64,000 bases of DNA from an uncultured Solirubrobacterales bacterium (GCA_963737575.1 CAVTTJ010000006.1:20620-84619); one strand, 5' to 3'; positions 2,999 through 33,595 are shown, counted from the first letter of the stretch. Made by a program: numbers and translations. Notes: generated from the sequence alone by a model not told the origin.

Positions 2999-3631
2999 AT
3001 GGCGACCAGGACGAGGAGGCGGCGGCTGACCCCCGAGAGGCGGCGGGAGATGATCCTTGCCGGGGCGACCGAGCTGTTCGCCGTGAATGGCTACGACGGC
3101 ACGTCGATGGGCCAGATCGCGGAGGCGGGCGGGATCACACCGGCAGTCATCTATGACCACTTCCCGGCCAAGTCGGAGCTCGCGATCGAGCTGCTCGAAC
3201 GACATACCGAGGAGCTGCTGCGGCAGGTGGGGGAGACCCTTCAGAGCGCCGGCGGCGGGCCGGCGGAACTGATGAGGGCGGGAGTCGACGCCTTCTTCGC
3301 CTACGTCGAGGAGCACCCGTTCGCGTGGCGGATGATGTTCCGCGACCCGCCCAGCGACCCCGATGTCGCCGCCGCCTACAGGCGGCTCGACCGCCGCGCG
3401 ACGGCCGGGATCGCCGCCTTCGTCGAGATGGGGGCGGGTGGCGCGTTGGCGCGCTTCGAGAACCCGGGGCGGGCGGCGGAGATGTTCGCCGAGGCTGTGA
3501 AGGGTGCCCAGAACGGGCTCGCCGCCTGGTGGTATGAGCACCCCGAGATTCCGAGGCGCGAGGTCGTCGACCGCATGCTCGAGTTCTCCTGGGCCGGGCT
3601 GGAGCGAACGGCGCGGGGCGGCCGTGACTAG
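2999..3631 (+). CDS. TetR/AcrR family transcriptional regulator
   Basis: N-terminal HTH: RREMILAGATELFAVNGYDGTSMGQIAEAGGITPAVIYDHFPAKSEL. Confidence 0.9.
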   Translation: MATRTRRRRLTPERRREMILAGATELFAVNGYDGTSMGQIAEAGGITPAVIYDHFPAKSELAIELLERHTEELLRQVGETLQSAGGGPAELMRAGVDAFFAYVEEHPFAWRMMFRDPPSDPDVAAAYRRLDRRATAGIAAFVEMGAGGALARFENPGRAAEMFAEAVKGAQNGLAAWWYEHPEIPRREVVDRMLEFSWAGLERTARGGRD

Positions 3632-8843: not shown

Positions 8844-8905
8844 TCGCGTCCATCCTCTCGCAGGCGCGATCCGAAGGTCAAGTTACGGATAGGCTGCCAT
8901 TTCGC

Positions 8906-10738: not shown

Positions 10739-10845
10739 CGCCCGCGCGCCGGGCATTTGCGTCCAGGAACGGCGCCAAACCTAAAGGATTTCTGACCGTA
10801 TGCCGAAAACTCGGTACGGTCCGGACCGCCCCGCCGCCCACCAGC

Positions 10846-15078: not shown

Positions 15079-15467
15079 ACAACTATTACCGAGGGGATAC
15101 TCGATCGACGGACGCCAAATATGTCATCGACCCGAGGGCGCGCCGATCTTACGCGAGACGCCTAACACCGAGTTGAGCAGCGGCGCCTGCGCGTCATGGT
15201 CTGCGCCCGGCCGAGTGCCCTCGCTCAGCGGAAGAAGGGCTCAGATCCGGCTAGTTTGAGACACTGTATCGGCGCGTAATAGGTCGATTTGCAGGGGAGA
15301 TGTCGCCAATGCCCAAAAAAGGGACATATCGGGTTGCATTTGGAGACTCGATCCTCTAGTCTTGCGCCCGCTCGCCAGGGAGGCGGGCCCGGGAAACATT
15401 TGACAGGGACTCTCGCACCGGTTCGATTAGGTGCAGGGTGAGGTCGAGCAGGGAAGGAGAGCATCGG

Positions 15468-17894
15468 GTGAGAGGCGCCAAGGAAACGTCTGCGACGTTG
15501 ATTGCGCACGCCGCGAACGGTCGCCGCACCGCCGTGGTGGCAATGCTCGCGCTGGCCGCCATCGCTGCCGTTGCGGTCCTCCCCTCGACAGCGCTTGCCG
15601 CAAGCGGCGGCTGGATCTCGACCGGCAGCTTCGGCTCGTTCGGCACCGGATCGGGTCAGTTTCAGGCCGACTACTTCGGGACCGGGGGCGGCGCCGCGGT
15701 CGACGAATCGACCGGCGACGTCTACATCACGGACACCGGCAACGCTCGGATCGAGAAGTTCGACGCCTCCGGCAACTTTCTCGCCGCCTGGGGGTTCGGG
15801 GTCGTCGACGGCAGCAACACGTACCAGGTCTGCACGGCCCCGAGCGGCTGCAAGGCCGGCCTCCCCGGCACCGCCCCCGGTCAGTTCAGCGACCCCGGCG
15901 GGATCGCCGTCGACAACTCCAACGGGCCGAACGCCGGAGACGTCTACGTCGTCGACGGGAACAATCCGAACGGCGCCGGCCAGAACGACAGGATCACCAA
16001 GTTCAGCTCCAGCGGTACCTACCTCAGTCAACTCGACGCCTCGACCTCCCCAGGTGGCGCCTTCCAGGGTCTGGCATTCAACGGCGCCGTCGCGGTTGAC
16101 GGCAGCGGCTTCGTCTGGGTCGCCGACGCCAACCAGCGGGTCCTGAAATTCTCGAACCAGGCGAACAACGCCTACGTCGTCGGGTCGCAATGGAGCTCGG
16201 GGCAGGCCGGCGCGATCGCGGTCAATAGCGCCGGGACGAAGGTCTACCTCTTCCCGTCCTGCTGCTATTCCCCGGCACAGGTATTTGACGCCGACGGGAC
16301 GAATCCCGGCAACAGCTTCGCCGGTGGCGGCTACACCGACCAGTTCGCCGTTGATAGGGCGACCGGACACGTCTTCGCCTCCTCCGGCGGCTATCAGATA
16401 GACGAATACCAGGCCGATGGAACGCCGATCTCGGGGACCACGTTCGGAGCCGGGATGTTCTCATTCTCCGATGGGATCGCGATCAACTCCGCGACGAAGA
16501 CGATCTATGTCGCCGACCAGTATGGGTCGAAGGTCGTCAAGTTCGTCCCCCGCATCGTCCCCGACGTGACCACGGGCGATCCCACTGGAGTCGGGCACAC
16601 GAACGCAACCCTGACGGGCCAGGTCGCTCCCGACGCGACCGGAGGCGGGGACGTCAGCGACTGCCACTTCGAATACGGGGAATCGACCGCCTACGGATCC
16701 ACCGCTCCCTGCGTCCCGGCGACTCCATACTCCGGCAGCACGGCTGTGACTGCCGACCTGACGGGCCTCGCCCCCGACGTCACCTACCACTACAGGCTCG
16801 TCGCGAGCAACTCGATCGGCCCCAACCAGGGCGCCGACAAGACCTTCACCCCGAACGCGGTACTGGACACCACCACCGGGACGCCCAGCGATGTCACCCA
16901 GATCAGCGCCACCCTCAACGGCTCGTTCACCGGCGATAACCACGACACCCACTACTACTTCGAATGGGGTACCGACAACTCCTACGGGAATACGGCACCC
17001 GCCCTTCCCGGCGGCGATGCTGGGACCACCACCGGCACCACCCCGGTGAGCGCGGACATCAGCGGGTTGAGCGAGTACACGTTCTACCACTACCGGCTCG
17101 TCGCCACGAACAGCATCGGCACCACCCACGGCGTCGACCGCGCCTTCTACAGCGCTCCGCCGATCATCCCGGACATCCAGGAAACCGGCGCGTCCGGCAT
17201 CACCCCCACGAGCGCGATGATCTCCGCCCAGATCAATCCGGGCTATGGCCAGACGATCTACATCGTCGAATACGGAACGTCGGCCAGCTACGACCAGCAC
17301 ACGGCGCCAGGACCCGCCCTGGACCCGGACAACATCCTGCATCCCGTCAGCCAGGGCCTGACCGGCCTCTCGTCCGCCACCACCTACCACTACCGGATCG
17401 TCGCCATCAACTTCGGCGGTGTCGGCCGCACCCCCGACATGACCTTCCGGACCTCCGACGTGCCGAGCGTCGACTCGACCTCGAGCACCGGAGTGGACAG
17501 CAGGAATGCAACGCTGACGGCGAGGATCAACCCGAATCTCTCCTCGACCACCTACCACTTCGAGTACGGCGTGGATGCCGGCTACGGATCACGGACGGCG
17601 GAGAGTGCTCCGATCGGCGCCGGAGCCGGGGACGAGGGCGCCAGCGCTCAGCTCTCGGGGCTCGCCCCGGGAACCACCTACCACTTCCGTGTCGTTGCCA
17701 CGAACGGCATCGGCAAGACGAACGGCAAGGATCAGACCTTCACCACTGCGCCGGCGCCCGTCGGCTCTCCCCCGCCGCCCGCTGTGCAGAAATGCAAGGC
17801 GGGATTCGCGCGCAGGCTCGGGAAGTGCGTCCGCAAGGGACGCCACCACCAGAAGCGTCATCGCCGCCATCTGAGAGGCCACGGCAATGGCTGA
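15468..17894 (+). CDS. operon gene A: secreted NHL-repeat propeller plus 4 FN3-like modules, polybasic C-terminal tail
   Basis: The GTG start lies 7 nt after the RBS GGAAGGAG. The signal peptide ends ...AVLPSTALA. NHL-like blades include GDVYITDTGNARIEKFDASGNF. Four modules end in YHYRLVASN, YHYRLVATN, YHYRIVAIN and YHFRVVATN. The tail is KCKAGFARRLGKCVRKGRHHQKRHRRHLRGHGNG. Confidence 0.85.
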   Translation: MRGAKETSATLIAHAANGRRTAVVAMLALAAIAAVAVLPSTALAASGGWISTGSFGSFGTGSGQFQADYFGTGGGAAVDESTGDVYITDTGNARIEKFDASGNFLAAWGFGVVDGSNTYQVCTAPSGCKAGLPGTAPGQFSDPGGIAVDNSNGPNAGDVYVVDGNNPNGAGQNDRITKFSSSGTYLSQLDASTSPGGAFQGLAFNGAVAVDGSGFVWVADANQRVLKFSNQANNAYVVGSQWSSGQAGAIAVNSAGTKVYLFPSCCYSPAQVFDADGTNPGNSFAGGGYTDQFAVDRATGHVFASSGGYQIDEYQADGTPISGTTFGAGMFSFSDGIAINSATKTIYVADQYGSKVVKFVPRIVPDVTTGDPTGVGHTNATLTGQVAPDATGGGDVSDCHFEYGESTAYGSTAPCVPATPYSGSTAVTADLTGLAPDVTYHYRLVASNSIGPNQGADKTFTPNAVLDTTTGTPSDVTQISATLNGSFTGDNHDTHYYFEWGTDNSYGNTAPALPGGDAGTTTGTTPVSADISGLSEYTFYHYRLVATNSIGTTHGVDRAFYSAPPIIPDIQETGASGITPTSAMISAQINPGYGQTIYIVEYGTSASYDQHTAPGPALDPDNILHPVSQGLTGLSSATTYHYRIVAINFGGVGRTPDMTFRTSDVPSVDSTSSTGVDSRNATLTARINPNLSSTTYHFEYGVDAGYGSRTAESAPIGAGAGDEGASAQLSGLAPGTTYHFRVVATNGIGKTNGKDQTFTTAPAPVGSPPPPAVQKCKAGFARRLGKCVRKGRHHQKRHRRHLRGHGNG

Positions 17895-17934
17895 GCGGGC
17901 ACGGTCGGTACCGCGTTCGAGGAGAGGAGCGAGA

Positions 17935-20900
17935 GTGTACAGAGGCACCGGTGCATCGACGAAGGCGGTTGCCACACGCCTTCGAGTCGTTCGTGTCGCG
18001 GCGCTTGCGCTGCTCGCTGCGCTCGTCCTCGCCACCGTCGGCGCGGGGAGCGCATCGGCCGCGATCTCACATGTCTGGGTAAAGAACTTTTCGGTTGCGG
18101 GCGCAAGCAACGCCATTCCGCAGGCCGTCGACGCCAACGGCAACATCCTCTTTTACGACAACAACAACAACACCGTCGTGCGCACGGACTCCGAAGGCAA
18201 TCCCGTGCCGTTCTCGGCGTTGGAATCAGACGTGATCGACGGGGAAGGGGGCAATGACTGTCCAAACACGCCGGCCGATTGCGACAAAGTCCCCACGGGA
18301 AGCTTCACCGGGAACACGAGCACCAACTACATACTCGTCGCGGTCGACAATTCGAGCGGGCCGGCGAGCGGGGACATCTATGTCGTCAACCCCGTGGGCA
18401 ACCCGTGGGAAGAGGTGCGCAACGGCCAGATCGAGGTTTTCGCCCCGACGGGGAAATTCATCGGCGAGATCGACCAGATCCAAGCCCAGCCGATCAACTG
18501 CCCGCAGCCGACCGGCAACCTCGCCGGTTGCGAGTACAGCGGCATCTCGGTCGACAAGAACGGTCTCATCTACATCTTCGACAGCCATTGGCCGCTGAAC
18601 CACATCGAGCGCTGGGTCCCGATCGACGAAACGCCTGCGGACGACCACTTCCTGGGCGAGCTCCAGACCAACAACTACGACAGGGAAGGGCATGGGTACG
18701 GCGAGACGACTGCCAACGTCCCGCTTCCCTGCGCGTTGGACTTCGGCGTCGCGACCGCCGACTACACCTACTGCGGCAGCGGAGCCGGCCCTCCGCGGCC
18801 GGACTGGCGGAAGTACCAGCCATCGGAGTACCAGAGGCCCGCGAACCAGGAATCGGTGCCGATGAGCTTCCTCCCCGATCTCGGCCCGTTCGGGCCGTCT
18901 GGCGGCCATGACTCGAGCTGCAACTGCCCCGAACAGGCATACGCCGATCAGTCGACGCAGCACATGTTCGTGATCGGCAACAACTACGAAATCGCGATCC
19001 AGGAGTGGGACAAGGACAACCACCGGGTCGGGCCCGCATTCGGCGGCGGGCACATCGGTGGCGCGGGCAGGGAAGGAATAGCGGTCGATGGCAGCAACGG
19101 CCCGAACCGCGGCAGCATCTACGTTCGGTCGAACGGATCGCAGATCGCGATGTTCGGCCCGCCGGTGACGGTTCCGGACATCAGCTACGGCCCCAGCGTC
19201 GTCGGCCACACGACCGCGAGCCTGAACGGGACGATCAGCCTCGCCGGCGGGACGAACGTGCAGGAATGCAAGATCGAATACGGGTTGACGACGTCGTATG
19301 GCACGTCCACGCCATGCGACCAGCCGACCCCGTATTCGAATGAAACAGACGTGAGCGCGCAGCTGTCGAGTCTCTATATCGAGGCCACGTATCACTACCG
19401 CATCGTCGTAACGAACGCGCTCGCCGGCAACTACGGGACCGATCAGACGTTCCGCACGCACGCGGTCCTCGATGCCAAGACCGAACCCGCCACGAACATC
19501 ACCATGAGCTCCGCGGAACTGAACGGATCACTCGATCCCGACGGGATGAGCACCCAGTACCACTTCCAGTGGGGAACCACGCAGCTGTACGGCCATGAAA
19601 CCGAAACGGCGGATGCCGGATCTGGCTCAGGGGACGTCAGCATGGCGCCGCAGACGATTTCGAACCTTCAGTCGGGGCGCACCTATCACTACCGGCTCGT
19701 GGCGGAAAACAGCCTCGGCACCACATTCGGCCCGGACGCAACGGTGAATGCCGCGCGAACTCCGGCGATCGATGGCGTTTACACGACGAGCGTGGGCGAA
19801 ACATCGGCCGACCTGAACGCGCGGATCAACCCCAGCGGGTTCGACACGTCATACCGCTTCGAATACGGCACGACGCCCGGCTACGGGTCGGTTGCTCCAA
19901 GCCAACGACGTCGACATCGGTTCTGGAGAAGTCGATCAGACCGTGACCGCTCATATTGCCGGCCTCGTCTCCGGGGTGACCTATCACTACCGTGTGGTCG
20001 CGACGAACCAATGGGGGACCACCGAAGGCGACGACACGACCTTCGACTACTTCCCACCAAACTGCCCGAACGCCCACGTGCGGCAGCAGGTAAGTGCCAA
20101 CTACCTCCCGGATTGCCGGGCCTACGAGCTCGTCTCGCCGGGTGACGCGGGTGGGATCCAGATGTTTTCCGGGAACGGGATTCCGCATCTGAACAACGCC
20201 CTACCGCCGGAATGGGACAACCTGCCTCAGAACAGCGGCTACGCGAGCAGCCCGGCGCGCTTCGCCTTCTTCGGCGCGCTGGGTGCAATCCCGGGCACCC
20301 ATGCTCCCAACTCCCTCGTCGACATGTATGTCGCGACGCGGACTCTCGACGGTTGGGTGACAACGTACCCGGGGCTTCGGGGTGACCAGGTGCTCGCGGC
20401 CGTGGGGCCCCACTGCAGCGCCGATCTGAGCCAGTGCTACGACTTCAACTACGGCGATCTGTTCGGCACCGACCCATCCAACAAGCAGTCCAAAGTTGCG
20501 TACAGCTTCAACGTCGACGGGTCGTTCCGCGGAAGGCTGCCGACGAACGCCGCGGTCGTGCCGAATTCAGCCGAATATCAGGGAACACAGCGAGCTTCGG
20601 CCGACTTCAGGCACTTCGTCTTCTCCTCGAACAACTACCCCTTCGCGGCCGGCGGCGTCGTCGGCGCGCCGGGGTCGGTCTACGACAACGACACTGAAAC
20701 CAACTCGATCACGATCGTCTCGAAGCTGGCAAGCGGAGATCCGATTCCGCAATCTGGAAAAGACCCGAACGAGTATCTCGGGATCCCCGCGGTCTCCTCG
20801 GACGGCTCGCACATCCTCATGTCCACCGCCTCGGCCACGCCCGAAACTTCCCATCTCTACATGGCCGTCAACGACTCCCTGTTCTACGACGTTTCGAAGG

Positions 20901-22060
20901 GTTTCGACGTCAAATTCGTCGGCGCCTCCAGTGACGGCTCAAAGGTCTTCTTCACCTCGAAAGAGCCTGTAACCGCCGATGATCACGACACCAGCGCAGA
21001 TCTCTTCATGTGGAGCGAGGCGAGCGACTCGATCACCCGAATCTCCCAGGGCGACGGCAACGGTGACACCAACGAATGCGTGACTCAGTGGGAGGGCATC
21101 AATTGCGGCGTCGTGCCGGTGAATACCGGCGTTTCGACGGATGACGTGGTCTCCGCGGACGGCGCCATCATGTTCTACTCGCCCGAGCAGCTGGATCCCG
21201 CCAATCCCGGCGTTCCGGGCGAGCGGAATCTCTACCTATATCGCAACGGCTCCGTCAGGTTCGTCGCCACGATGGATCCGGGGTCGGTGATCGCCAGGTT
21301 GCAGATGTCCCCCGACGCAACCCATTCGGCACTGCTCACCGACAGCACTCTGACCGGTTACGACAACACCGCCCCGGATGGCGTTTGCTCCGAAGATTCG
21401 GAAGGCGGGAAGCTGACCGGGCCGAAGTGCCGGGAGATGTACAGGTTCGATGCCGACACCGGAGTCCTGCAATGCGTGTCCTGCAACCCAACCGGGGAGC
21501 CGCCGTCGAACGACATCTTCGCCAGCGCGAGCGGGCGGTTCATGAGCGACGACGGGCGGACGTTCTACTCGACCCGCGATGCCCTAGCTCCGCGCGATAC
21601 TGACGGAATTCAGGACGTCTACGAGTTCGTGGACGGCAGGCCGCAGCTGATCTCGAGCGGCACCGGCAAACAGGACGAATGGGGAGGCGGTCTCCTCATC
21701 TTCCCGCCCTCTGTGGTGGGCCTCGAGGCGGTGAGCCGCGACGGGACAAACGTCTTCTTCTCCACCTTCGACACCCTCGTGTCCGAAGATCACAACGGGC
21801 AGTTCCTGAAGTTCTATGACGCCCGCACCAACGGCGGCTTCCCGGAACCGCCGCCGGCGCTTCCCTGCACCGCTGCCGACGAGTGCCATGGCGAAGGAAG
21901 CGCGACCCCGGCCGAGCCACAGGTCGGAACCGGCGCGCAGTTGGGCGGCGGCGGCAACGCCCAGGCGCCGAAGCCCGAAGGCAAGCGACACAAGCTCAGG
22001 AAGCACCGCAGGAGCCGGAGGCATCGCAGGCACGGCCAGAGGAGCGTGCGCCATGGTTAG
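17935..22060 (+). pseudogene. operon gene B: NHL propeller + 3 FN3-like modules + PD40/TolB-like propeller, about 1370 aa, interrupted by a 1-nt frame disruption near 19897-19901
   Basis: ORFs 17887..20145 (frame 1) and 19892..22060 (frame 2) join into one protein collinear with the paralog at 24872..28490. Frame 1 reads ...FEYGTTPGYGSVAP, then frame 2 reads ANDVDIGSGEVDQTVTAHIAGLVSGVTYHYRVVATN. The GTG at 17935 follows the RBS GGAGAGGAG; the ATG at 17887 is an alternative start. Confidence 0.8.
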
Positions 22061-24809
22061 TTCGGCTTCGGTCTCACGGATGTCCTGGGCGCGACGGGCG
22101 ATCTGCCTGATGTTCGTCTTCGCAGCGGTGTGCGTACTGGGTCCCGCGTCGGCCCAGGGATTCACGGGGATCAACCAGTTCAACATGAACTTTTCGACGT
22201 ATCAGGCCGGTGGCCATCCGGATGTCGACATCGACCTGAACATGGACACGAGAGGCTCGCAGGGCGGAGTGGCTACGACCCCACCGCCGGGGACCTGCGA
22301 CTGCCAGGACGTCGAAGGCATCGACATCCATTTTCCCACCGGGTTCATCGGCAGCCCAGGCACCGTTCCGAAGTGCTCGCTCGCGGACTTCAGCACCGCC
22401 GAATGCCCGGTTAACGCACAGGTCGGAGAGGTCGACCTCGGGTTCATCGGCCGCAAACCCATGTACAACATGCAGCCGAGGCCCGAAGAGGCGGCGCTGA
22501 CCGCCTTCGAAGTGCCGGCCACGAACTCGGCGGCGTTCACAGTTCTTCATGGGCGCACGGGCTCGGACTACGGGCTCGATGCCACGACGACGGGAATCTT
22601 CCACATCCTGCCGCTCGGCGTGCTCCACATCCATCTCTGGGGGGTCCCGGCCCTGCCGATCCACGACGTCAACAGATGGCCGAAGCAGACCGGCCTCTGT
22701 GTGCAGAACGAATATCCGAATCCGTGTTTCGGGGTGACGGCTTCCAACAGTCCGCCCACTCCGTACCTTGAGGCGCCAACCACCTGCGGCACGCCGCTGA
22801 CGGGCGCCGTCGACCTTCGCTACTACGACTTCACCAACGTCCGCGCCGAAACCTCGGTTCCGGGAACCGTCGGCTGCGATCAGCTGACCTTCAACCCGAG
22901 CCTCACGGCCCTGCCGACCACGACGCAGGCGGACTCCGCCTCCGGGATGGACGTCGATGTGGTCGTGCCGCAGACGCTGGACCCCTCGGTCCCCGCGCCC
23001 TCGGAGATCGAGGGGACGACCGTGCACCTGCCCGATGGATTCTCGATCAATCCGAACGCCTCAGACGGGAAGACCGCCTGCAAGGACGAGGAAGCGGCCT
23101 TCGGGACCGAGAAAGCCGCAGCCTGCCCAGAGTTTTCGAAGGTCGGCACCGACGTCATCGACAGCTCGGCGCTGCCGGGGCCGATCAGTGGCGCGATCTA
23201 TCTTGGGCAGCCGCAACCGGGGAACCGCTATCGAATCTTCCTCACCGCCGACGGTTTCGCGACGCACGTGAAGCTCCGCGGCACCGTGCAGCCGGATCCC
23301 GGCACCGGACAGCTCCTGGTCTCCTTCGAGAATCTGCCGCAATCGCCCTTCCGCGAGTTCAGCATGCACTTCTTCGGCTCCGAACGCGGCCTGCTCGCGA
23401 CGCCGACCCAGTGCGGCACATACCCGGTCAACACCGAATTCACGCCGTGGGACAACGAGCTGCCCACACAGCACTCGCTCTCGTCCTTCTCCGTGGACTC
23501 CGGTCCGAGCGGCTCTTCCTGCCCCTCGAAGCCTCGGCCCTTCGCGCCGAGCCTCATCGCCGGGACCGTTGACAACACCGCCGGAGCGCATACGCCCCTC
23601 ACGTTCCAGGTCAAGCGAAACGATGGCGATCAGAACCTCAGCGCGGTCAACGTGACGACGCCGCCCGGGTTCTCGGCGTCGCTGAAGGGGATCCCCTACT
23701 GCCCGCAGGCCGCGCTCGACCAGCTCCGGGATCCTGCCTATTCCGGCCTGGATGAGCTTTCCCAGTCGAGCTGCCCGGCCGCCAGTCAGATCGGCACGGC
23801 GACCGCCGGCGCCGGCGCCGGCACCCACCCCCTCTACACCCCCGGCAAGGTCTTCCTCGCAGGCCCGTACCAGGGAGCGCCCCTCAGCCTCGCCGTGGTC
23901 GTGCCGGCGGTCTCCGGGCCGTACGACCTCGGCAACGTGGTCGTCAGGGTCGCGGTCCGGGTCGACCCGACCACGGCGCAGATAACGGCGGTATCCGACC
24001 AGATCCCGCAGATCCTCGAAGGCATTCCGCTGAGGCTGCGCTCGATCCAGGTCAAGCTCGACCGGCGGGAGTTCGGCCTCAACCCGACGAACTGCGATCC
24101 CTTCTCGATCGAAACCTCGCTGACTGGGAGCGAAGGGACGGTTGCGACTCCCAGCGCGGGCTTCCAGGTGGCGAACTGCACCGACCTGGCCTTCGGTCCA
24201 AAACTCGGCCTTCAGTTCTCCGGCGCAACCAAGCGGAGGGGGCACCCGGCGTTGCAAGCGATTCTGCGGACCCGGCCCGGTGAAGCGAACATCAGCAAAG
24301 TCGTCACGAGCCTGCCGAAAACGCTGCTGCTCGACAACGCCCACATCCAGAGCCCCTGCACCCAAGTGCAGTACGCGCACGACGCATGTCCCGCCGGCTC
24401 GCAGCTCGGCTCCGCCACCGCCGAGTCTCCGCTGCTCGGCGAGCCGCTCAGCGGCCCCGTCTACCTGCGCTCGGGCAGCCACAAGCTTCCGGATCTCGTC
24501 GTCCAGCTCAACGGTCAGGTCGATATCGAATTGCTCGGCCGCATCGATTCCACGAAGGGAGGCGGCCTGCGGACGAGCTTCGAAACCGTGCCGGACGTCC
24601 CCGTCACCCGTTTTGCCCTCAGCCTCGAAGGCGGCAAGAAGGGACTGCTGCAGAACAGCTCCGACCTCTGCAAGTCCCCGGGCAGCGCCGGCATCCGGAT
24701 GACTGGACAAAACGGGGTGGTCGCCAGCAGCCGGCGCAAGCCCCAGGTGGACTGCGGCTCCAGCGCGAGCCACAAGCGCCATCTGCACAGGGCGAGGAGG
24801 CCACGGTGA
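22053..24809 (+). CDS. operon gene C: secreted 918-aa Cys-loop repeat protein of unrecognised family
   Basis: The ATG overlaps the stop of gene B, with the RBS GAGGAG 8 nt upstream. The signal peptide ends ...VLGPASA. An N-terminal STYQAGGHPDVD motif is followed by four modules of the form LPxGF...C...CPxxSxxG. The tail is SHKRHLHRARRPR. Confidence 0.85.
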   Translation: MVSSASVSRMSWARRAICLMFVFAAVCVLGPASAQGFTGINQFNMNFSTYQAGGHPDVDIDLNMDTRGSQGGVATTPPPGTCDCQDVEGIDIHFPTGFIGSPGTVPKCSLADFSTAECPVNAQVGEVDLGFIGRKPMYNMQPRPEEAALTAFEVPATNSAAFTVLHGRTGSDYGLDATTTGIFHILPLGVLHIHLWGVPALPIHDVNRWPKQTGLCVQNEYPNPCFGVTASNSPPTPYLEAPTTCGTPLTGAVDLRYYDFTNVRAETSVPGTVGCDQLTFNPSLTALPTTTQADSASGMDVDVVVPQTLDPSVPAPSEIEGTTVHLPDGFSINPNASDGKTACKDEEAAFGTEKAAACPEFSKVGTDVIDSSALPGPISGAIYLGQPQPGNRYRIFLTADGFATHVKLRGTVQPDPGTGQLLVSFENLPQSPFREFSMHFFGSERGLLATPTQCGTYPVNTEFTPWDNELPTQHSLSSFSVDSGPSGSSCPSKPRPFAPSLIAGTVDNTAGAHTPLTFQVKRNDGDQNLSAVNVTTPPGFSASLKGIPYCPQAALDQLRDPAYSGLDELSQSSCPAASQIGTATAGAGAGTHPLYTPGKVFLAGPYQGAPLSLAVVVPAVSGPYDLGNVVVRVAVRVDPTTAQITAVSDQIPQILEGIPLRLRSIQVKLDRREFGLNPTNCDPFSIETSLTGSEGTVATPSAGFQVANCTDLAFGPKLGLQFSGATKRRGHPALQAILRTRPGEANISKVVTSLPKTLLLDNAHIQSPCTQVQYAHDACPAGSQLGSATAESPLLGEPLSGPVYLRSGSHKLPDLVVQLNGQVDIELLGRIDSTKGGGLRTSFETVPDVPVTRFALSLEGGKKGLLQNSSDLCKSPGSAGIRMTGQNGVVASSRRKPQVDCGSSASHKRHLHRARRPR

Positions 24810-24871
24810 CGGCGGGGATTCTGAGACGAGCGATGAGTGGCATGACGATCACGAGAGTCAGGGGAGGGTCA

Positions 24872-27800
24872 GTGGCACGCCGACGGCACATCGGTCTATC
24901 TCGCGATCGGCCTGACGACGATCGGTCTGCTCCTCGCGGCGGCGCCCGCCGGTGCCACGACCGTCTACACGCACAACTTCCTCGGGTCGTTCGACGGTTC
25001 AGGCTCGAAAGGGCCGGGCAATGTTTCGACCGGGCCGCTCAACTCGGTCGGTCCGCTCGCGATCAACCAGTCGACCGGCCAGGTGTTCGTCTGGGACACG
25101 GGCATCGGGACGATCGACAAGTTCGACGCCAACGGAAATCCGCAGGCCTTTGCATCGCTCGGGGCCGGCATCAATTCGTTGAACATTCCGTATCTGGGCG
25201 GCCTGCCGATGTACTGCGACTGCGACATCGCCGTCGACAGCTCTGGCACCTCCAGCCAGGGGCGGATATATGAGTTCCAGGAGGGGCAGGTGACCTACGC
25301 CTATGAACCGGACGGTTCCTCCCTGAGCGGAAACTTCCCGCTGGCCTCGTTCGGCGACATGTGCGGAGGCGCCGTCGACTCCCAGGGCAACTACTGGTGG
25401 ACCGCATACGGGCAGGGAACGTTCGCCTACGACGCGAGCGGCACGCCGCTCAACAAATCCGTGGCACCGGAAGGAAACTGCCACCTCGCGATCGACTCCG
25501 CGGCGCCGGGCTCGCACCCGACGGCCGGCTATTTCTATATCGCCAACTGGAACGGAGCGGTCCACGCATTCAACCCGGAAGGCACCTTCGAGTACACCGT
25601 CGACGAAGAGGGGACCTCGGCCGTCGCGGTGGATCCCTCGACCGGAAACATCTACGCGGATCACGGGGACCACATCTCCGAGTGGGCTCCGAGCGATCCG
25701 GTCGGGTCTCCGAACACGCCGGGCGCCAAAATCAGCACCTTCGGTGAGCCTTCCCCCGGGTTCTCCGGGCTGCAGTCGAACACCTGCTACCCGACCCGGG
25801 GAATCTCCGTCAACGGCGTCACCCACTACGTCTACGTGTCGGACTGCGGGAGGGTGGACATATTCGGTCCGGGCCAGGCCGAGATCATCCCGACCGTCAC
25901 CACCGACGATGCCGACGTAGCGCCGACCACGGCGGTGCTCCACGGGCATGCAACCACCGACGGCGGCGGCGACACAAACGGGTGCTTCTTCGAATACGGC
26001 CTGACGGCGAGCTACGGGAAGACCGCACCGTGCGCCGACCCATCCGGCCCGATCCATGACGCCGATGGAAACATTGCCGTGACCAGCGCGCCCGTCTCGG
26101 AACTCGCCCAGGGCAGCACCTATCACTACCGGCTCGTCGTCACAAACACCAACGGGGCCGGTTATGGCACCGACCAGATCTTCAAGCCGCAGGGGCCGCC
26201 GGAGATCAGCAGTGTCGGTGTGTCTGAAGTCAACACCGACGGGGCGCGGATCACGGCCGCGGTGGATCCGTCTGGAGGCGACACCAGATATCAGTTCCAG
26301 TGGGGGTCGACGAACGCATACGGCAGCAGCTATCCGATTCCGGATCAGAAGCTGCCGGACACCAAGAACCTCCGGACCGAGAGGATGGTGCTCAAAGGCC
26401 TACAGCCCGGAGCCACGTACCACTACCGGATCGTCGCGCACAACGACCTCGGCTCCACCGAAAGCGGTGACCACACCTTCACCACGTTTTCCGAGAATCC
26501 ATCGGGCACGGACCCCTGCGCGAACGCCCACGCGCGCCAGCAGACCGGGGCGGCTCTGCTTCCCGATTGCCGCGCCTACGAGCTTGTCTCGGCTGGGAGC
26601 ACGGACGGCTACAACGTGCAATCGGACCTCGTGCTCGGCCAGGTGCCGCTGCCGGCGTTCCCCAGCGCCAGCGGTCGCGTGCTCTACTCGGTCCACTTCG
26701 GCACGATCCCTTCGGCGGGGGGCAACCCGACGAACTTCGGGCTCGACCCCTACCTGGCGACCCGTGGCTCGGACGGGTGGACGACACACTATGTCGGGAT
26801 CGACGCCGACGGGACCCCGACCAAAGGGCCGTTCGCCTCGCCCCTCGGGACGGCTGACGCTTCGCTCGAAACATTCACGTTTGCGGGCTCCAACCTCTGC
26901 GCGCCGTGCTTCGGAGACGGCACCACGGGCATTCCGCTTCGCATGCAGGACGGCACGCTGGTGCAAGGGATGAAGGGAAGCCTCGAACCGGGTCCGAACG
27001 CGGCGACCGACGGGCTCGTCGCGAAGGCGCTCTCCGCCAGCGGCACGCATCTCGTCTTCGGATCGACCTCGAAATTCGAGCCGGACGGCAACTCGAACGG
27101 CGACGTCTCGATCTATGACCGCAACCTCTTGACCGGAGTCACGCACGTCGTGTCCAAGACGCCGGATGGGGCAAACCTGCCGTGTCTTCAGGGGGCGGGA
27201 ACGTGCCACGGACCCGGGGACATCAACGGCATCGGCGAGCTCGACATGTCCGCGGACGGCTCCCGGATCCTCCTCGGCCAGCGGATGTCGACCGACGCCA
27301 GGGGCAACAACTACTGGCACCTCTACATGAACCTCGCCGATTCCGAATCCAGCGTCGACCTGACCCCGAACCCGGTCGCCGGTGCGATCTACGACGGCAT
27401 GACCGCGGACGGCTCGAAGGTCTTCTTCACGACCACCGACAAGCTCAGTCCGACGGCCGATACCGACTCGAGAGCAGACATCTACGAGGCGGACGTCGCG
27501 GGGAATGGAAGCGTGACCTGGCACCTGGTCTCGAGCGGCACCGGCGGAGCCGGGAACGTCGATTCCTGCAGCCCGGCCGCGAACCATTCGAGCGCTCACT
27601 GGAACAGCCTCGGTCCCGCCGGTTGCTCCGCCCTCGCCTTCGCCGGCGGCGCCGGGATAGCGAGCGGCGATGGGACGGTCTTCTTCCTCTCGCCTGAGAA
27701 GCTCGATGGCTCGGGAGTCCAGGACCAGCCGAACCTTTTTGTGGCTCGCCCGGGGCAGGCGCCCCGGTACGTGACGACGTTGGAACCGGACAGCACGTCC

Positions 27801-28490
27801 GTCACCAACGCGCTGACGCAGTCGGCGGTCCACAGCTACTCCGACTTCCAGGTGACTCCCAACGGAGAAGACGCGGTCTTCACGACCAAGCTCTCGCCGA
27901 ACGGCTACGACAATCGCGGCCACTCGGAGGTCTATCGCTATGACGTGGGCTCGGAAAGCCTTGACTGCGCCTCCTGCGCGCCCACCAATGCGTTTGCCAC
28001 CACAGACGCGCAACTGGCCCGGTACGGCCTCAGCGTCTCGGATGACGGCAGGGTCTACTTCACGAGCGGCGACCAGCTGGCGCTCAGGGATTCCAACGGC
28101 CACCGCGACATCTACCAATGGGATGACGGCAAGGTCGATCTGATCTCGACGGGAACCGGGAATTACGACTCCGGCCTGTTCTCGGTGAGCAATGACGGGA
28201 CCGACGTCTACTTCTTCACCCACGACACCCTCGTTCCAGAGGACGTGAATGCCCAGCTGGTGAAGCTATATGACGCCCGCAGCGACGGCGGATTCCCGCG
28301 TCTCCCCCCGCCGGTTCCCTGCCAGGCCTCGGACGAGTGTCATGGACCGGGGACCCAGGTTCCGCCGCCGCCCTCCGTCGGCACCTATGTGGGGACCGGG
28401 GGCAACGGCAAAGCCGGAGCCCGCAAGAAGCACAACCGTCACCGCAAACACCACCGTCGCCCGCGGCATTCACGGAGACATCATGGCTGA
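24872..28490 (+). CDS. operon gene B': NHL propeller + 2 FN3-like modules + PD40/TolB-like propeller, polybasic tail; the signal peptide is split by an apparent 1-nt frame disruption near 24887-24896
   Basis: Frame 3 is open from 24846 to 28490 and encodes ...VYLAIGLTTIGLLLAAAPAGATTVYTHNF..., but has no ATG, GTG or TTG before 25083. In frame 2, GTG 24872 (RBS GGGGAGGG upstream) gives VARRRHIG, the missing n-region of the signal peptide. The tail is KKHNRHRKHHRRPRHSRRHHG. Confidence 0.75.
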
Positions 28491-31261
28491 GCGGCAACCG
28501 AGCGAGGCAAGGAGAGTGACCGTGTTGAAGAGGGTGCTGGTGGTCGTGGTCGGCGTCGCGACGATGCTGCTCGTGGCATCGCCGGCTTACGCCAGCGAGG
28601 CGATCAGCTCGTTCACGGTCGATACGTCGACCACGCAGGCTGGCGGGCACCCTGACCTGACCACATCGATGACTCTCGACAGCCCGGGTGCGCCGGAGGT
28701 GGCGAAGGACGTGGCGGTGAGGATGCCGGAGGGGGTCTTCGGCAACCCGCAGGCGATTCGCCAGTGCAGCACCGTCGACTTCGCCCAGCAGGAATGTTCT
28801 CCGACATCACAGGCCGGCGTGGTGACGATTTCCGCCAACTATGGGGGGGACCCGGAAAACCTGCTCGGGAGCGCCCCGATCTTCGACATGGTTCCCGCGA
28901 GCAGTGACGAGACCGCTCGCTTCGCCTTCATCGTGCCGGGAGTGAACATCCCGATCAGTGTCCCGGTCACGGTGCGCACGGGGTCCGATTACGGCCTCAC
29001 CTTCAACGTCACCGGGATTACTCAGATCATTCCTCTCGCTTCAGTCGACTTCACCGTCTGGGGCATCCCGGCCGATCACTCGCACGACAACGAACGCTTC
29101 CTGATCGGCTCCCTCAGCCACCCGGCGGGATGCCCGGGCGAAGCCACCGCGATCTGCGCGTCCCAGTCGGGCAGCGCTCCGAACTCCGCCGGCATCCCGC
29201 CGCAGCCGCTGACCGACAACCCGACAACCTGCCCGGGGCAGCCGCTGACGGTGAGCGCCGAAATCCGGACCTACCAGGATCCGGCGAATCCCTCCGGTGC
29301 GGAGGCCGACTATCCGCCCTCCACCGGCTGCGAGCTGGAGACCTTCAACCCGGTGATGAATATGTCGCTGACCTCGACTGAGGCCGATTCCCCCGCCGGC
29401 CTCGACGTCACGCTGAAAGCGCCTCAATTCGAGAGCCAGGCTGCATCGCCGTCGGAGATCCGTTCGACGACCATCACCCTTCCGGAAAGCCTCTCGATCA
29501 ACCCGGACGCCGCCGACGGACAGCGCGCCTGCACGGATGCCCAGGCGAACTTCGGTAGCGACGGACCGGCGAACTGCCCCGACAACTCGAAGATCGGCAA
29601 CTTCGACGTCGAAACGCCGGCACTAACCGGCCCCCTCGTCGGGGCGATCTACTTCGGTGAACCGAAGCCCGACGACCAGTACCGACTCTTTCTGGTCTCC
29701 GATGGGTTCGGGATCCACTCAAAGCTCGTCGGATCGGTAAGGCCTGACCCGCAAACGGGGCAACTGACCATGAGCCTGAGGGATCTGCCGCAGGTTCCCT
29801 TCGAAGCGCTCAACGTTCATCTATTCGCCTCCAACAGGGGCCTGGTGGCAACGCCCACCCAGTGCCGCGTGTACGGCGTCGACTCGGTTTTCGTTCCCTG
29901 GAACACCAGCCTTGCGCCACAGCATTCGGCGCCGATTTTGAGCATCGATTCCGGGCCGGACGCAGAGCCCGTGCCCCGGTCCGATCAGGCCGTTCCACCC
30001 GAGCCTGGTGGCCGGTGCCTCCAACCCCGTCGCCGGCGCCTTCTCCAGCTTCACGCTGAGGCTCGACCGAAACGACGGCGACCAGTTCCTCGGCGATCTG
30101 AACTTCCGGATGCCTCCCGGCTTCACCGGAAACCTGCGCGGAATCAGCTACTGCCCGGATGTGGCGATCGGGCAGGCGGCAAACAACCTGGGCCGGACGG
30201 AGCTGGCGAGCCCGAGCTGTCCCGCCTCCTCCCAAATCGGGACCACCAACGTGGCCGCCGGGCCAGGTTCACACCCCTTCCACGCCGTCGGCAGGATGTA
30301 TCTGGCGGGCCCCTTCAAGGGAGCGCCGCTGAGCCTCGCCGCGGTCACACCCGCCCTCGCCGGCCCCTATGACTACGGCACCGTCGTGGTGCGGGTGGCA
30401 CTGCATGTGGATCCACTGACCGCCCAGGTCACCGCCGTCTCGGACACGGTCCCCCACATCATCGGTGGCGTCCCGATCCGGATGCGCTCGATCCAGGTCA
30501 ACATCGACAAGCCGAACTTCACGATCAACCCGACGAACTGCAGCCCGTTCTCCGTCGAATCACAGGGAATCGGCGATCAGGGGACGGTCGCGGACTTCAG
30601 CTCCTACTTCCACGCCGTCAACTGCGCGGCGCTTCCCTTCAAGCCGCAGATGACGCTCCGCCAGCTGGGCGGCCACAAGGCCACCGCCAGGAGCAAGGAC
30701 CCGGCGCTGCGATTCGACCTGCGGACGAGGCCCGGGGACGCCAACATCAAGTCGCTGACGGTGACACTGCCGAAGTCGTTCGCGATCGACCAGCGCCATC
30801 TCGGCAACATCTGCTCGAAAGCGCAGCTGGCCGCCGAACACTGCGCCGGCCGGCAGCCGATCGGTACCGCGAGCACAGTGACGCCGCTCCTGGATCAGCC
30901 GCTGAAGGGCCCGGCCTACGCGGTCTCGGGCTTCGGCAAACTGCCGCATGTCGTCTTCATCCTCGGAGGCCAGGTGACGATCATGCCGGAAGCGGAATCC
31001 TCCTCGGTCAACGGCCGACTGACGACGACCGTTCCCGTCGTTCCCGATGCGCCGATCGGCCACTTCCGCCTCAACCTCAACGGCGGAGGCCACGGCTATC
31101 TCACGAACACGCGCGACCTCTGCCGGCAGCAACCGATCGCGAGCGTCAGCTTCGTCGGCCAGAACGGATCGAGGTACGAACAGAAGCTGCCGATGAAGGC
31201 GGCCTGTGGAAAAGCCGGTAGGCAACGAAGTCACGAGCGCCACGGAGGAGGGGGACGATGA
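28483..31261 (+). pseudogene. operon gene C': paralog of gene C, interrupted by a 1-nt frame disruption near 29962-29968
   Basis: ORFs 28270..30372 (frame 1) and 30008..31261 (frame 2) join collinearly with gene C. Frame 1 reads ...SIDSGPDA, then frame 2 reads SPCPGPIRPFHPSLVAGASNPVAGAFSSFTLRLDRNDGDQ. The match in C is SGPSGSSCPSKPRPFAPSLIAGTVDNTAGAHTPLTFQVKRNDGDQ. The start is ATG 28483, or GTG/TTG near 28523 giving (M)LKRVLVVVVGVATMLLVASPAYA. Confidence 0.8.
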
Positions 31262-32790
31262 ACAGGCCGCGCTTTCGGCGCTGGGCCATCGCCGCCGCCG
31301 CAGTTCTGCTGCCGTTGCTGTTCGCTCAGGCCGCCCAAGCGATCTCGCTGATCAAAATCCGCGAGGTCTATCCGGGTGCCAATAACGACAGCTACGTCGA
31401 GCTGCAGGCCTACGGTCCCTTTCCCTTCGCTGGTGGAACGCTCCCCGGGAAATCCCTGATCCTCTTCACCCCGGACGGCACCCCGACGGACAGCTTCACC
31501 TTCATCCAGCACAACGAACTGGGCGCCGACAACACGTCCTTCCTGATCGGCGACACGGGCGTCGAAGGAACCTTCTCCGTCACCCCGGACATCACCGATT
31601 CCCAGATGAACATCGACCCGGCGGGGGGCGCCGCTTGCTGGAACGTCGGCGACACCCCCGTCGATTGCGTCTCCTGGGGAGACTTCAGCGGCCGCGAAAG
31701 CCTGGTCGCCTTCGCCGGAACTGACGTCGGCAACCCCGCCTCTCCGGGAGGAATCACGCCCGGGAAGTCGATCGAACGGACGATCGCCCCCAACTGCTCC
31801 ACCTGGCTCGAGGCGGATGACGACACCGACGACAGCGCCACGGATTTCCACGAGACGGGGCCGAACCCGCAGCCTGCCGGGAATTTCAATCCCGCGGAAG
31901 AACCGTGCCTCTCGGGGATGCCGGACGACACCGTGGTCAACCAGAAGCCGAGCGATCCGTCGGACTCCAACAGCGCCCACTTCACCTATGCCGCGACGGG
32001 TGCGACGAGCTACCAGTGCAAGCTCGATGCATTCCCGCGTTTCACCGCCTGCCCTGAAGGGGGTCAGGACTACTCCAACCTCGGCGACGGCCAGCACACG
32101 TTCCAGGTGCGGGCCCTGAACACACACGGCCCGGACAGGACGCCGGCGAAGTACACATGGACGGTGGACACCACGGCTCCGCAGGCGACGATCATCTCGC
32201 ATCCCCGTCCGCAAAGCATCGGTAGGGAGGCCACATTCACGTTCTCCTCGAGCGAGCCCGCCGGCAGCTTCATGTGCAGTCTCGACACAGAACCCCCCTC
32301 GAGCTGCGAATCGGGGATCACGCTGCACTCGCTGAGCACGGGCTCCCACACGTTCCACGTCGCGGCGTCAGACCTTGCGGGCAACGTCCAGGCACCGCCT
32401 GCCAGCTATTCATGGACGGTCGAATCCAACCCTCCGGTGACGACGATCGACAGCAAGCCGGACAATCCGACCACAAGCTCGACGGCGACGTTCACGTACC
32501 ACGCGAGCAGGCCGGACACGTTCTTCGAATGCAGCCTCGATGGGTCGAGCTTTTCGAGCTGCCCGACGAGCGGCGCGACCTACGCCGGGCTGACGGACGG
32601 GCCGCATACCTTCAGCGTTCGCGCGATCGACTCTGACAACGACACGGAGGCGAGCCCGCCGAGCTACGCGTTCACGGTGGGCACTCCCACTGCGCCGGCG
32701 AAGCACACCTGCAGGAAGGGCACCAGGAAGAAGATGGTCGGTGGCAGGCTGAGGTGCGCGAAGATCCGGCACCACAAGCGCCACCACTAG
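31258..32790 (+). CDS. operon gene D: secreted lamin-tail-domain (LTD) protein with 3 Ig-like Cys-pair modules and a polybasic tail
   Basis: The ATG overlaps the C' stop (ATGA), with the RBS GGAGGAGGGGG. The signal peptide ends ...LLFAQAAQA. LTD signature: IKIREVYPGANNDSYVELQ. Three repeats follow the pattern F.C.LD...F..C......L..G.HTF.V.A.D. The tail is KHTCRKGTRKKMVGGRLRCAKIRHHKRHH. Confidence 0.85.
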   Translation: MNRPRFRRWAIAAAAVLLPLLFAQAAQAISLIKIREVYPGANNDSYVELQAYGPFPFAGGTLPGKSLILFTPDGTPTDSFTFIQHNELGADNTSFLIGDTGVEGTFSVTPDITDSQMNIDPAGGAACWNVGDTPVDCVSWGDFSGRESLVAFAGTDVGNPASPGGITPGKSIERTIAPNCSTWLEADDDTDDSATDFHETGPNPQPAGNFNPAEEPCLSGMPDDTVVNQKPSDPSDSNSAHFTYAATGATSYQCKLDAFPRFTACPEGGQDYSNLGDGQHTFQVRALNTHGPDRTPAKYTWTVDTTAPQATIISHPRPQSIGREATFTFSSSEPAGSFMCSLDTEPPSSCESGITLHSLSTGSHTFHVAASDLAGNVQAPPASYSWTVESNPPVTTIDSKPDNPTTSSTATFTYHASRPDTFFECSLDGSSFSSCPTSGATYAGLTDGPHTFSVRAIDSDNDTEASPPSYAFTVGTPTAPAKHTCRKGTRKKMVGGRLRCAKIRHHKRHH

Positions 32791-32835
32791 CCGGCAAGCC
32801 GCCGCCCGAATATCCAGATTTGCTGGGCTTTTCAG

Positions 32836-32908
32836 AGCCGACGCCCGGACTTGAACCGGGGACCCCTTCATTACGAGTGAAGTGCTCTACCAACTGAGCT
32901 ACGTCGGC
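32836..32908 (-). tRNA. tRNA-Thr (anticodon CGU)
   Basis: The reverse complement folds as a cloverleaf: GCCGACG TA GCTC AGTTGGTA GAGC A CTTCA CTCGTAA TGAAG GGGTC CCCGG TTCAAGT CCGGG CGTCGGC T. No CCA is encoded. Confidence 0.9.
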
Positions 32909-32965
32909 GCGATCGCACATTCTATGAGCGAATCGCCCGCGGTTCCGTCGCGGCCGCGCGCGAGC

Positions 32966-33595
32966 ATGCCGGATATGAGCAAGACACGCCAGCCGATGCG
33001 CAGAGAGGAGAACGAAGTCGAGTTCGCCCGGATCGTCGCCTTCAGCGACGGCGTCTTCGCGATCGCGATCACGCTGCTGGTGCTCAATCTCCACATCAAA
33101 TCGGGGCTGCCCGGCGACCGGCTCTGGCATGAAGTTTGGGAACTGCGCGAAAACTTCATCGCCTTCGCGATCAGCTTCGCGGTGATCGGGCGCTTCTGGG
33201 TCATCCACCACCGCTTCTTCGGCGAGGTGAGGGCGTTCGAGGGGCGCCTGATCGCCCTCAACATCCTCTATCTGGCCTTCATCGTCCTGATCCCGTTCAG
33301 CAGCCAGCTGCTCGGCGAGTATGGGGGCGAGGCGGCGGCCGTCGTCGTTTACGCAGTCAATCTCGCAGGGTGCGTTCTCGTCGGGTTTCGGATGAATGCC
33401 TACGCCCGGGGGGCCGGGTTGGCGACAATCGACGACGCGACCCAGCGCGAGAACTCATTCCGCGCCCTCTTCATCGCGTCGGTGTTCCTGCTCTCGATCC
33501 CGCTCGCGTTCGTCGCGCCCGGCATCGCGCCGCTCCTCTGGCTCACGCTTTTCCTGGACCCGGCATCGCGGCTCGCGGCCCGCGCCGGGGGTTAA
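32966..33595 (+). CDS. TMEM175-family (DUF1211) potassium channel
   Basis: RIVAFSDGVFAIAITLLVL matches the family signature (FSDGVFAI.ITLL). It has about 6 TM helices. Confidence 0.8.
   Translation: MPDMSKTRQPMRREENEVEFARIVAFSDGVFAIAITLLVLNLHIKSGLPGDRLWHEVWELRENFIAFAISFAVIGRFWVIHHRFFGEVRAFEGRLIALNILYLAFIVLIPFSSQLLGEYGGEAAAVVVYAVNLAGCVLVGFRMNAYARGAGLATIDDATQRENSFRALFIASVFLLSIPLAFVAPGIAPLLWLTLFLDPASRLAARAGG

Follow-up and report, generated by a model that had tools for sequence, protein, structure and literature searches.

The 64,000-nucleotide (nt) stretch of DNA analysed here, hereafter the window, comes from an uncultured Solirubrobacterales bacterium (GCA_963737575.1 CAVTTJ010000006.1:20620-84619) and carries, on the plus strand at 15468-32790, an operon of six genes in the order A-B-C-B'-C'-D (Table 1), which is one copy of a lineage-specific (A)-B-C-B'-C' cassette. 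The layout was read from open reading frame (ORF) calls and directly from the gene junctions: all strong coding signal in the interval lies on the plus strand (the G+C content of the window is 63-74%), five of five junctions overlap, by 4-8 nt, and a GGAG-type Shine-Dalgarno sequence precedes each of the six starts. The six packed, same-strand genes and the overlaps listed in a preliminary description of this DNA are confirmed, and the GTGA overlap between C and B', missing from that list, can be added to them. Confirmed as well is its statement that no enzyme, transporter, sortase or regulator is interleaved: Pfam and NCBIfam searches find none between the operon genes. No further cassette copies or accessory families are present in the window outside 15.4-32.8 kb.

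Table 1. The operon, its parts and its neighbours; positions are those of the window, and protein lengths in amino acids (aa) are those after frame joining.
Feature	Position	Strand	Remarks
DUF1800 domain	about 10750-12426	+	C-terminal part of long ORF 9019-12426
DUF1501 gene	12439-13788	+	pairs with DUF1800; common pair of unknown function
RTX calcium-binding nonapeptide-repeat protein, 241 aa	14353-15078	-	divergent from the operon
Intergenic region 5' of A	15079-15467	+	between the divergent RTX-repeat gene and the start of A; presumed promoter and 5' untranslated region
Gene A, 808 aa	15468-17894	+	intact
A, N-terminal and central regions	aa 1-770		signal peptide aa 1-44; NHL beta-propeller about aa 45-385; four fn3-like modules (YHYR/YHFR motif) about aa 386-770
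A, C-terminus	aa 771-808		CX10C and Arg/His/Lys tail; 14 K/R/H in last 25 aa
A/B overlap ATGGCTGA	17887-17894	+	read directly
Gene B, about 1391 aa	17887-22060	+	frame-corrected; signal peptide, N-terminal propeller, three fn3-like modules, T domain, Pro-rich linker, tail
Apparent +1 frameshift in B	19895-19910 (approx.)	+	..GYGSVAP / QANDVDIG..
B/C overlap ATGGTTAG	22053-22060	+	read directly
Gene C, 918 aa	22053-24809	+	intact; signal peptide aa 1-35; basic tail aa 903-918
C module D1, aa 36-278	22158-22886	+	
C module D2, aa 279-496	22887-23540	+	
C module D3, aa 497-713	23541-24191	+	
C module D4, aa 714-902	24192-24758	+	
C/B' overlap GTGA	24806-24809	+	read directly
Gene B', about 1228 aa	24806-28490	+	frame-corrected; NHL, two fn3, T domain, linker, tail
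Apparent +1 frameshift in B'	24880-24895 (approx.)	+	..GGSVARRRH / SVYLAIGLTTIGLLLAAAPAGA; signal-peptide region
B' six-bladed NHL propeller	about 24960-25859	+	
B' two fn3 modules	about 25860-26489	+	
B' T domain	about 26502-28289	+	
B' Pro-rich linker and basic tail	about 28290-28487	+	
B'/C' overlap ATGGCTGA	28483-28490	+	read directly
Gene C', about 926 aa	28483-31261	+	frame-corrected; four-module plan as in C
Apparent +1 frameshift in C'	29940-29955 (approx.)	+	..SIDSGPDA / QSPCPGPIRPF..
C'/D overlap ATGA	31258-31261	+	read directly
Gene D, 510 aa	31258-32790	+	signal peptide; N-terminal domain of ~180 aa; three weak Ig-like repeats; CX12C and basic tail
tRNA-Thr(cgt)	32835-32908	-	45 nt past the D stop
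TMEM175-type K+ channel gene	32882-33595	+	next after tRNA-Thr(cgt)

Each of A, B and B' has as its N-terminal domain a bona fide NHL propeller, closest to the sensor domain of PknD. A lies above the Pfam cut-offs for both NHL (PF01436, 39 bits; cut-off 20) and fn3 (PF00041, 52.8 bits; cut-off 25), its Pfam families being NHL and fn3/PhoD_N/Pur_ac_phosph_N; with the same fn3 model B' scores 32.4 bits and B a sub-threshold 17.6 bits, and the fn3 modules of B are 37-39% identical to those of A. Searched against PDB, the B-family profile finds Pizza propellers (5e-43), the PknD sensor domain of Mycobacterium tuberculosis (1rwi, E=2e-25) and PAL lyase (3fvz, 1.8e-12). PknD shares with the operon proteins an extracytoplasmic actinobacterial NHL propeller; the operon proteins, however, have neither a kinase nor a membrane span, and their propeller is joined to fn3 modules and to a 600-residue propeller-like domain. 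In the AlphaFold2 model of mature B' (predicted local distance difference test, pLDDT, 89.5; predicted template-modelling score, pTM, 0.70), a six-bladed NHL propeller is followed by two fn3 modules and a large beta-rich C-terminal domain; the propeller matches the NHL domains of Brat, Thin and TRIM71 (1q7f, 6d69, 8j72) with template-modelling (TM) scores of 0.70-0.75, normalised to target length (Foldseek). Matches of the whole B' chain are to propeller-fn3 ectodomains and tandem-propeller proteins, led by the metazoan receptors ROS1, Sevenless and LRP2/LRP6 (E 1e-18 to 1e-13), whose extracellular, ligand-binding portions likewise alternate propellers with fn3-type spacers (propeller-fn3-fn3-propeller in B'). 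The likeness is one of architecture alone: at 9-11% identity and a TM score of ~0.15, B' has no YWTD/EGF signature, membrane span or evolutionary link in common with these receptors. A Teneurin- or Tc-toxin-like reading (NHL plus shell) was discarded, as Pfam and NCBIfam detect no YD/RHS repeats or toxin domains.

If the front of B and B' is so readily recognised, what is the C-terminal T domain? In B it spans ~600 residues, beginning CPNAHVRQQ..DCRAYELVS, and the tail beyond it ends in RHG. The preliminary description had combined NHL, FN3 and PD40/TolB-like elements in these proteins; the first two are borne out by Pfam and by fold, while PD40 (PF07676) is unsupported: the C-terminal half of B reaches 11.7 bits (E=0.27; cut-off 20.9), and B' has no match. 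Among the 60 PDB matches listed for the B-family profile, none falls in the T domain. Because the AlphaFold2 model is beta-rich here and matches multi-propeller proteins, the T domain may be called propeller-like at the level of predicted fold, though not PD40.

C and C' share a plan of four tandem modules. The AlphaFold2 model of C is all-beta (pLDDT 90.1, pTM 0.79), and its modules D1-D4, ~200-240 residues each, are homologous to one another (hhalign probability 85-98%, E 1e-12 to 7e-6), with a Cys..CP loop conserved in each and an AG(G)HP motif also characteristic. The preliminary description had called this an unrecognised family, and so it is: neither C nor C' belongs to a Pfam or NCBIfam family, and C has no PDB match by sequence; together with the C-terminal domain of B, these proteins fall into no curated family or solved structure that sequence comparison can reach. 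By structure, Foldseek relates C to PrgB (1e-10), integrin alpha legs (5e-8), SdrD/ClfA, an RTX adhesin extender and complement MG domains, and, in the viral structure library BFVD, to generic DUF11, fn3 and Big/Ig arrays. The best of these matches, the Ig-like stalk adhesins (PrgB, 8beg; SdrD; ClfA; Sgo0707) and the integrin alpha legs, resemble C as strings of beta-sandwiches that form an extended stalk; they differ in that C matches them with TM scores of 0.16-0.26 and 6-11% identity, lacks an LPXTG/sortase signal and has a ~200-residue module of its own. A thioester, alpha-2-macroglobulin-like nature for C, raised by the MG-domain matches and by a CDCQ string, was rejected: Q85 is not near-invariant, and the match probability is 0.2-0.6 with TM below 0.1.

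The module is widespread. At E<=1e-3, 9,944 cluster representatives are retrieved with the C profile, 3,945 of them at E<=1e-30, a family of tandem beta-sandwich modules that is new to curated databases; the close homologs of C, at least 1,620, are all hypothetical proteins from metagenome-assembled genomes (MAGs) of Solirubrobacterales and from soil metagenomes. Actinomycetota MAGs also encode giant proteins, 2,112-7,167 aa long (P0121-P0128; P0511 = MBI4897769.1), in which 5-17 stretches match the profile, as would suit a fibre or stalk; in P0126, whose sequence was read, it is the D2-D3 di-module of C that is repeated in tandem. Natural fusions join A-like NHL and fn3 domains to C modules in P0130, and fn3 to C in P0142 and P0155.

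Within the operon, B and B' are 33% identical over 890 aa and C and C' 42% over 919 aa; the duplication of the B-C pair proposed earlier is real, and the paralogs are more divergent than the half-identity estimated then. How general is this arrangement? A scan of one genome per species with exact peptide patterns yielded 80 loci, none of them outside Solirubrobacterales and related MAGs; because the patterns were exact, copy numbers are lower bounds. In almost all 80 loci, tblastn with domain queries recovers the same-strand order [NHL-fn3]/N-fn3-T/C/N-fn3-T/C, so that the genes are not scattered singletons: B-C-B'-C', often after A, is kept together. The window operon agrees with this cassette in gene order, in having a C-type protein first and a C'-type second, and in its basic tails. 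At every two-copy locus the first C scores higher with window C and the second with window C'; therefore, the pair was duplicated before the cassette was amplified, and the quartet, with both pairs retained together, is the functional unit. A single B-C pair occurs at three distant loci (37-38% identity). Amplification, which the preliminary description did not mention, reaches at least five loci on each of two complete chromosomes (2.9-3.1 Mb) and six in each of three other MAGs, that is, at least 5-6 cassettes per genome, with paralogs 49-59% identical to window C.

Among the 80 loci, 37 have one to four TetR regulator genes no more than 10 kb away from the cassette, 5' or 3' of it and in either orientation (for example, at 19.8-22.4 kb in L002 and at 2.4-5.3 kb in L057; the nearest in the window lies ~12 kb upstream, at about 3050-3628), and clustering of flanking ORFs finds small secreted genes 3' of C' in 24. 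In twelve (L006, L007, L010, L035, L038, L039, L043-L045, L048, L051 and L057), the same-strand genes after C', at about 19-22 kb in each locus, encode a membrane-anchored protein of ~214 aa and one or two secreted proteins of ~250 aa that belong to no Pfam family; these proteins may be optional subunits in the place of D. None of these flanking extras, TetR or small secreted, adjoins the window operon, and the flanking-ORF clusters of the related loci hold no sortase or transporter. A phage or mobile origin was considered and dropped: no relatives occur in IMG/VR viral contigs, and the BFVD matches are to generic Ig/fn3 arrays.

Several divergent cassettes per genome, whose products are all secreted, beta-rich and enzyme-free, would also suit the components of an S-layer or sheath lattice, the paralogous cassettes forming a variation repertoire (to evade phages or predators, for example) of which one is expressed at a time. 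Two-protein S-layers encoded by one operon do exist, as in Tannerella (TfsA/TfsB). However, no protein of the operon matches SLH or another S-layer anchoring domain in Pfam, four or five large and different proteins per unit would be unusual for a lattice, and up to 17 C-profile stretches per chain suggest filaments over sheets; repeat and promoter scans, in themselves uninformative, revealed no invertible promoter or recombination element. We regard a lattice as quite unlikely.

D stands apart from the quartet. It follows C' at only two other loci, L008 and L083, the latter an ortholog of the window operon from another assembly (~87% protein identity), and in L071 it is encoded on the other strand; to judge from this distribution, D is an accessory gene and not a conserved member of the cassette. 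It had been taken for a lamin-tail-domain (LTD) protein, which sequence profiles do not support: a search of D with the LTD model (PF00932) gives no match at E<=5, alignment A3 (the N-terminal segment of D and 37 homologs) has none at E<=1 in any of its 38 sequences, and precomputed annotation assigns PF00932 to none of the 120 homologs listed for the N-terminal domain of D. What Pfam offers instead are weak, sub-cut-off matches to Big_13, Y_Y_Y and Big_3_3. The N-terminal domain of D represents an uncharacterised Solirubrobacterales family of 811 homologs, all hypothetical, whose profile has no PDB matches.

The six genes are not six intact ORFs, as the preliminary description implied. ORF calling yields eight long ORFs, since the reading frame shifts once in each of B, B' and C', and with the shift uncorrected the signal peptide of B' has no in-frame ATG, GTG or TTG. 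These breaks are most likely errors of long-read assembly rather than real inactivation, since in the ortholog all three sites are read through and the breaks lie at other places. L083 (ERZ25039487 contig_51618), which has the same TMEM175-like gene downstream, reads each of the three window shift sites in one frame (B' aa 1-113 and C' aa 15-922 are each uninterrupted) and has at least seven frame changes of its own, at other positions, in about 15 kb, a pattern typical of assembly error; programmed frameshifting and conserved pseudogenes were rejected on the same grounds. L001 and L002, which cover the same region and encode an identical C protein, differ in that B' is split in the former and intact in the latter. 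The related MFD MAGs are Nanopore-only assemblies with one Medaka polish (PMC12313526). The genes of L083 are called as fragments of 85-1257 aa; long paralogous genes are badly handled in some long-read metagenome assemblies.

Might the window copy instead be a decaying pseudogene cluster, in which the shifts are real and no functional B, B' or C' is made? Such decay would be compatible with any reading of cassette function at the family level, and dead copies are common in large paralog families. Compared with L083, the window has a net one extra nt at each of the three sites, none of which lies in a homopolymer run; three +1 shifts fall within 17.3 kb, whereas none is evident in ~20 flanking genes with full-length Pfam matches, and therefore the three may be real inactivating mutations. 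By our own estimate, which takes the error rate as uniform, the chance that all three errors would fall in the operon is ~0.09. Past each shift, however, the sequence is still well conserved and free of stops in the shifted frame, which, with the behaviour of L083, L001 and L002 and the Nanopore-only origin of the related MAGs, makes decay improbable. Caution is nonetheless in order when this assembly is used: three of the six genes are broken in it, probably by sequencing error.

All six proteins start with a single hydrophobic segment followed by an AxA-like site, consistent with the signal peptide that the preliminary description had assigned to every gene, and have no other transmembrane-like stretch; in the last 70 residues, no hydrophobic segment is found (maximum Kyte-Doolittle value, 0.35). 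Every protein has an even number of cysteines (8-22), and many Cys columns are near-invariant. With the sortase signal defined as in PMC5817068, the sole LPxT[GAS] motif within 100 residues of a C-terminus is LPCTA in B, 65 residues from the end and with no hydrophobic segment after it, and no usable LPXTG signal is present. Exosortase, archaeosortase and rhombosortase signals (PEP-CTERM, GlyGly-CTERM) are likewise absent, there being no C-terminal hydrophobic segment and no match to an NCBIfam sorting domain; the only NCBIfam match in the six proteins is ScyF, in the NHL region and far under cut-off. Pfam and NCBIfam scans of the operon and its flanks detect no sortase within or adjoining it. 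Sortase, exosortase and S-layer anchoring were all set aside on these grounds.

What the C-termini do have in common is charge, a feature that had gone unremarked. The last 25 residues of the six operon products contain 9-18 K/R/H, and those of all other ORFs in the window at most nine; tails with at least eight R/K/H occur in 69 of 74 C homologs and 48 of 50 B homologs. In the B family, R/K/H make up 60% of the last 25 residues, 26 of 50 tails end in Gly (in alignment A2, 24 of 50 end in -HG, -NG or -RG), and 20 of 50 contain a CX8-13C knot in a Lys/Arg-rich stretch, e.g., CSKGFVKKHGKCIKK; the knot, which is also present in A and D, may be a small basic hairpin closed by a disulfide. No NCBIfam model covers such a poly-basic tail, and to our knowledge no sorting or anchoring signal of this form has been described. 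The basic C-terminal wall-binding regions of Lactobacillus S-layer proteins bind teichoic acids, and a comparable non-covalent, charge-based retention on anionic wall polymers is proposed here; those regions, however, are folded and exceed 100 residues, whereas the tail described here has 15-40 residues, sometimes includes CX8-13C and often ends in Gly/Arg.

How might these products work together? We tentatively favour, at just under an even chance, a wall-tethered, heteromeric stalk-and-head binding complex made by the amplified (A)-B-C-B'-C' cassette. The products would leave the cell via the Sec pathway and assemble outside it as a disulfide-stabilised hetero-complex: C and C' would be the stalks, rods of four tandem Ig-like beta-sandwich modules; A, B and B' would be the heads, putative ligand-binding beta-propellers on fn3 spacers; and B and C would pair physically. 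The Arg/Lys/His-rich C-terminal tails would tether the complex non-covalently to anionic wall polymers, and the divergent cassettes of a genome would confer different specificities for adhesion or for capture of soil polymers. An extracellular hetero-complex is the most economical reading of a co-translated, secreted, disulfide-rich set in which heads and stalks are kept together, fusions occur and the tails recur; the fixed two-pair gene architecture would itself imply that the complex is obligate. The dedicated multi-component secreted system of the preliminary description, which could be mapped to no described one, still stands, minus D as a conserved member; its placement at the surface, as a sheath, fibre or S-layer accessory, is a matter of inference only.

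Several points weigh against a tethered binding complex. The tether is proposed purely by inference, since no known wall-binding domain was found in the six proteins (SLH, LysM, GW, WxL, CWB2); metals, minerals or DNA would be equally plausible partners for His-rich tails. The Foldseek matches of C, at TM scores no higher than 0.26, are to generic tandem Ig-like arrays. The propellers could be enzymes, and automatic annotation labels some of their relatives lactonase or lyase on account of the propeller fold. In a different arrangement, the proteins would be freely released, with the propellers as enzymes or lectins whose substrates are soil or plant polymers, tails that stick to humic matter, clay, polysaccharide or extracellular DNA, and C as a spacer or carrier. 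A membrane anchor is missing along with the wall-anchoring domains; NHL/SGL-type propellers do include enzymes, as the PAL lyase match recalls, and homologs carry PF08450; and TetR genes near 37 loci suggest induction by a small molecule. Yet no catalytic family scores over threshold in Pfam or NCBIfam, the strict two-pair retention of B and C and the natural fusions favour an assembly over independent enzymes, and the giant tandem-module relatives look fibre-like; free release is unlikely, if somewhat less so than the lattice. The most far-reaching form of the tethered-complex reading is less likely than not: a previously unrecognised cell-envelope apparatus of Solirubrobacterales in which a B·C·B'·C' stalk-and-propeller complex made of the new ~200-residue beta-sandwich module, a new class of C-terminal sorting or anchoring signal that has no membrane segment and a ligand-capture repertoire of at least five cassettes would all come together.

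Among known systems, the closest organisational parallel is offered by the csc clusters (cscA-D) of Lactobacillus plantarum and other Firmicutes, which occur in multiple copies, encode only Sec-secreted proteins of four fixed families and have been proposed to form surface complexes for carbohydrate acquisition, with novel wall-association domains (Siezen et al. 2006, PMC1534035). Like them, the loci described here are secreted-only gene sets with one member per family per cluster and several clusters per genome, and would combine novel C-terminal wall-association elements with surface complexes for substrate acquisition. Unlike them, they belong to Actinomycetota, encode much larger (0.8-1.4 kaa) and unrelated proteins, have a duplicated-pair unit, B-C-B'-C', and would be anchored by an unstructured poly-basic tail instead of a folded WxL domain; Pfam, NCBIfam and a motif scan found no DUF916, WxL or LPXTG. 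Because no Csc family or WxL domain is present, the operon is not a csc cluster, and the two share their organisational logic alone. The folds of the cassette are of known kinds; the curated protein-family libraries and the papers searched describe neither the family of the C module nor the cassette of two fixed pairs, its amplification or its basic tails, and a literature search found no description of these proteins in Solirubrobacterales.

Solirubrobacterales are among the commonest actinobacterial orders in soil and are almost unstudied. If the cassettes are real surface machines, at least 5-6 copies, each roughly 15 kb long, would account for some 2-3% of the ~3 Mb genome (our own estimate), and the role of this repertoire would be comparable to that of the Lactobacillus csc clusters or the Sus-like loci of Bacteroidota. 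The poly-basic, His-rich C-terminal tail could be a new route of surface retention in monoderm bacteria, and thousands of "hypothetical proteins" in soil metagenomes would be better annotated.

At the upstream end of the operon, a Shine-Dalgarno sequence, GAAGGAGAG, lies 7 nt before the GTG of A at 15468; the promoter scan found no sigma-70 consensus (0 promoters). The terminator scan was as uninformative as the promoter scan, returning fewer terminator-like sites than shuffled controls. At the other end, the TMEM175-type gene also lies 3' of D in L083, which marks the downstream boundary of the operon. The RTX-repeat protein encoded divergently from A is likely secreted too and lacks a basic tail. 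Farther upstream, the N-terminal part of ORF 9019-12426 overlaps another coding frame, 8786-10738, which encodes 650 aa with a weak beta-helix match.

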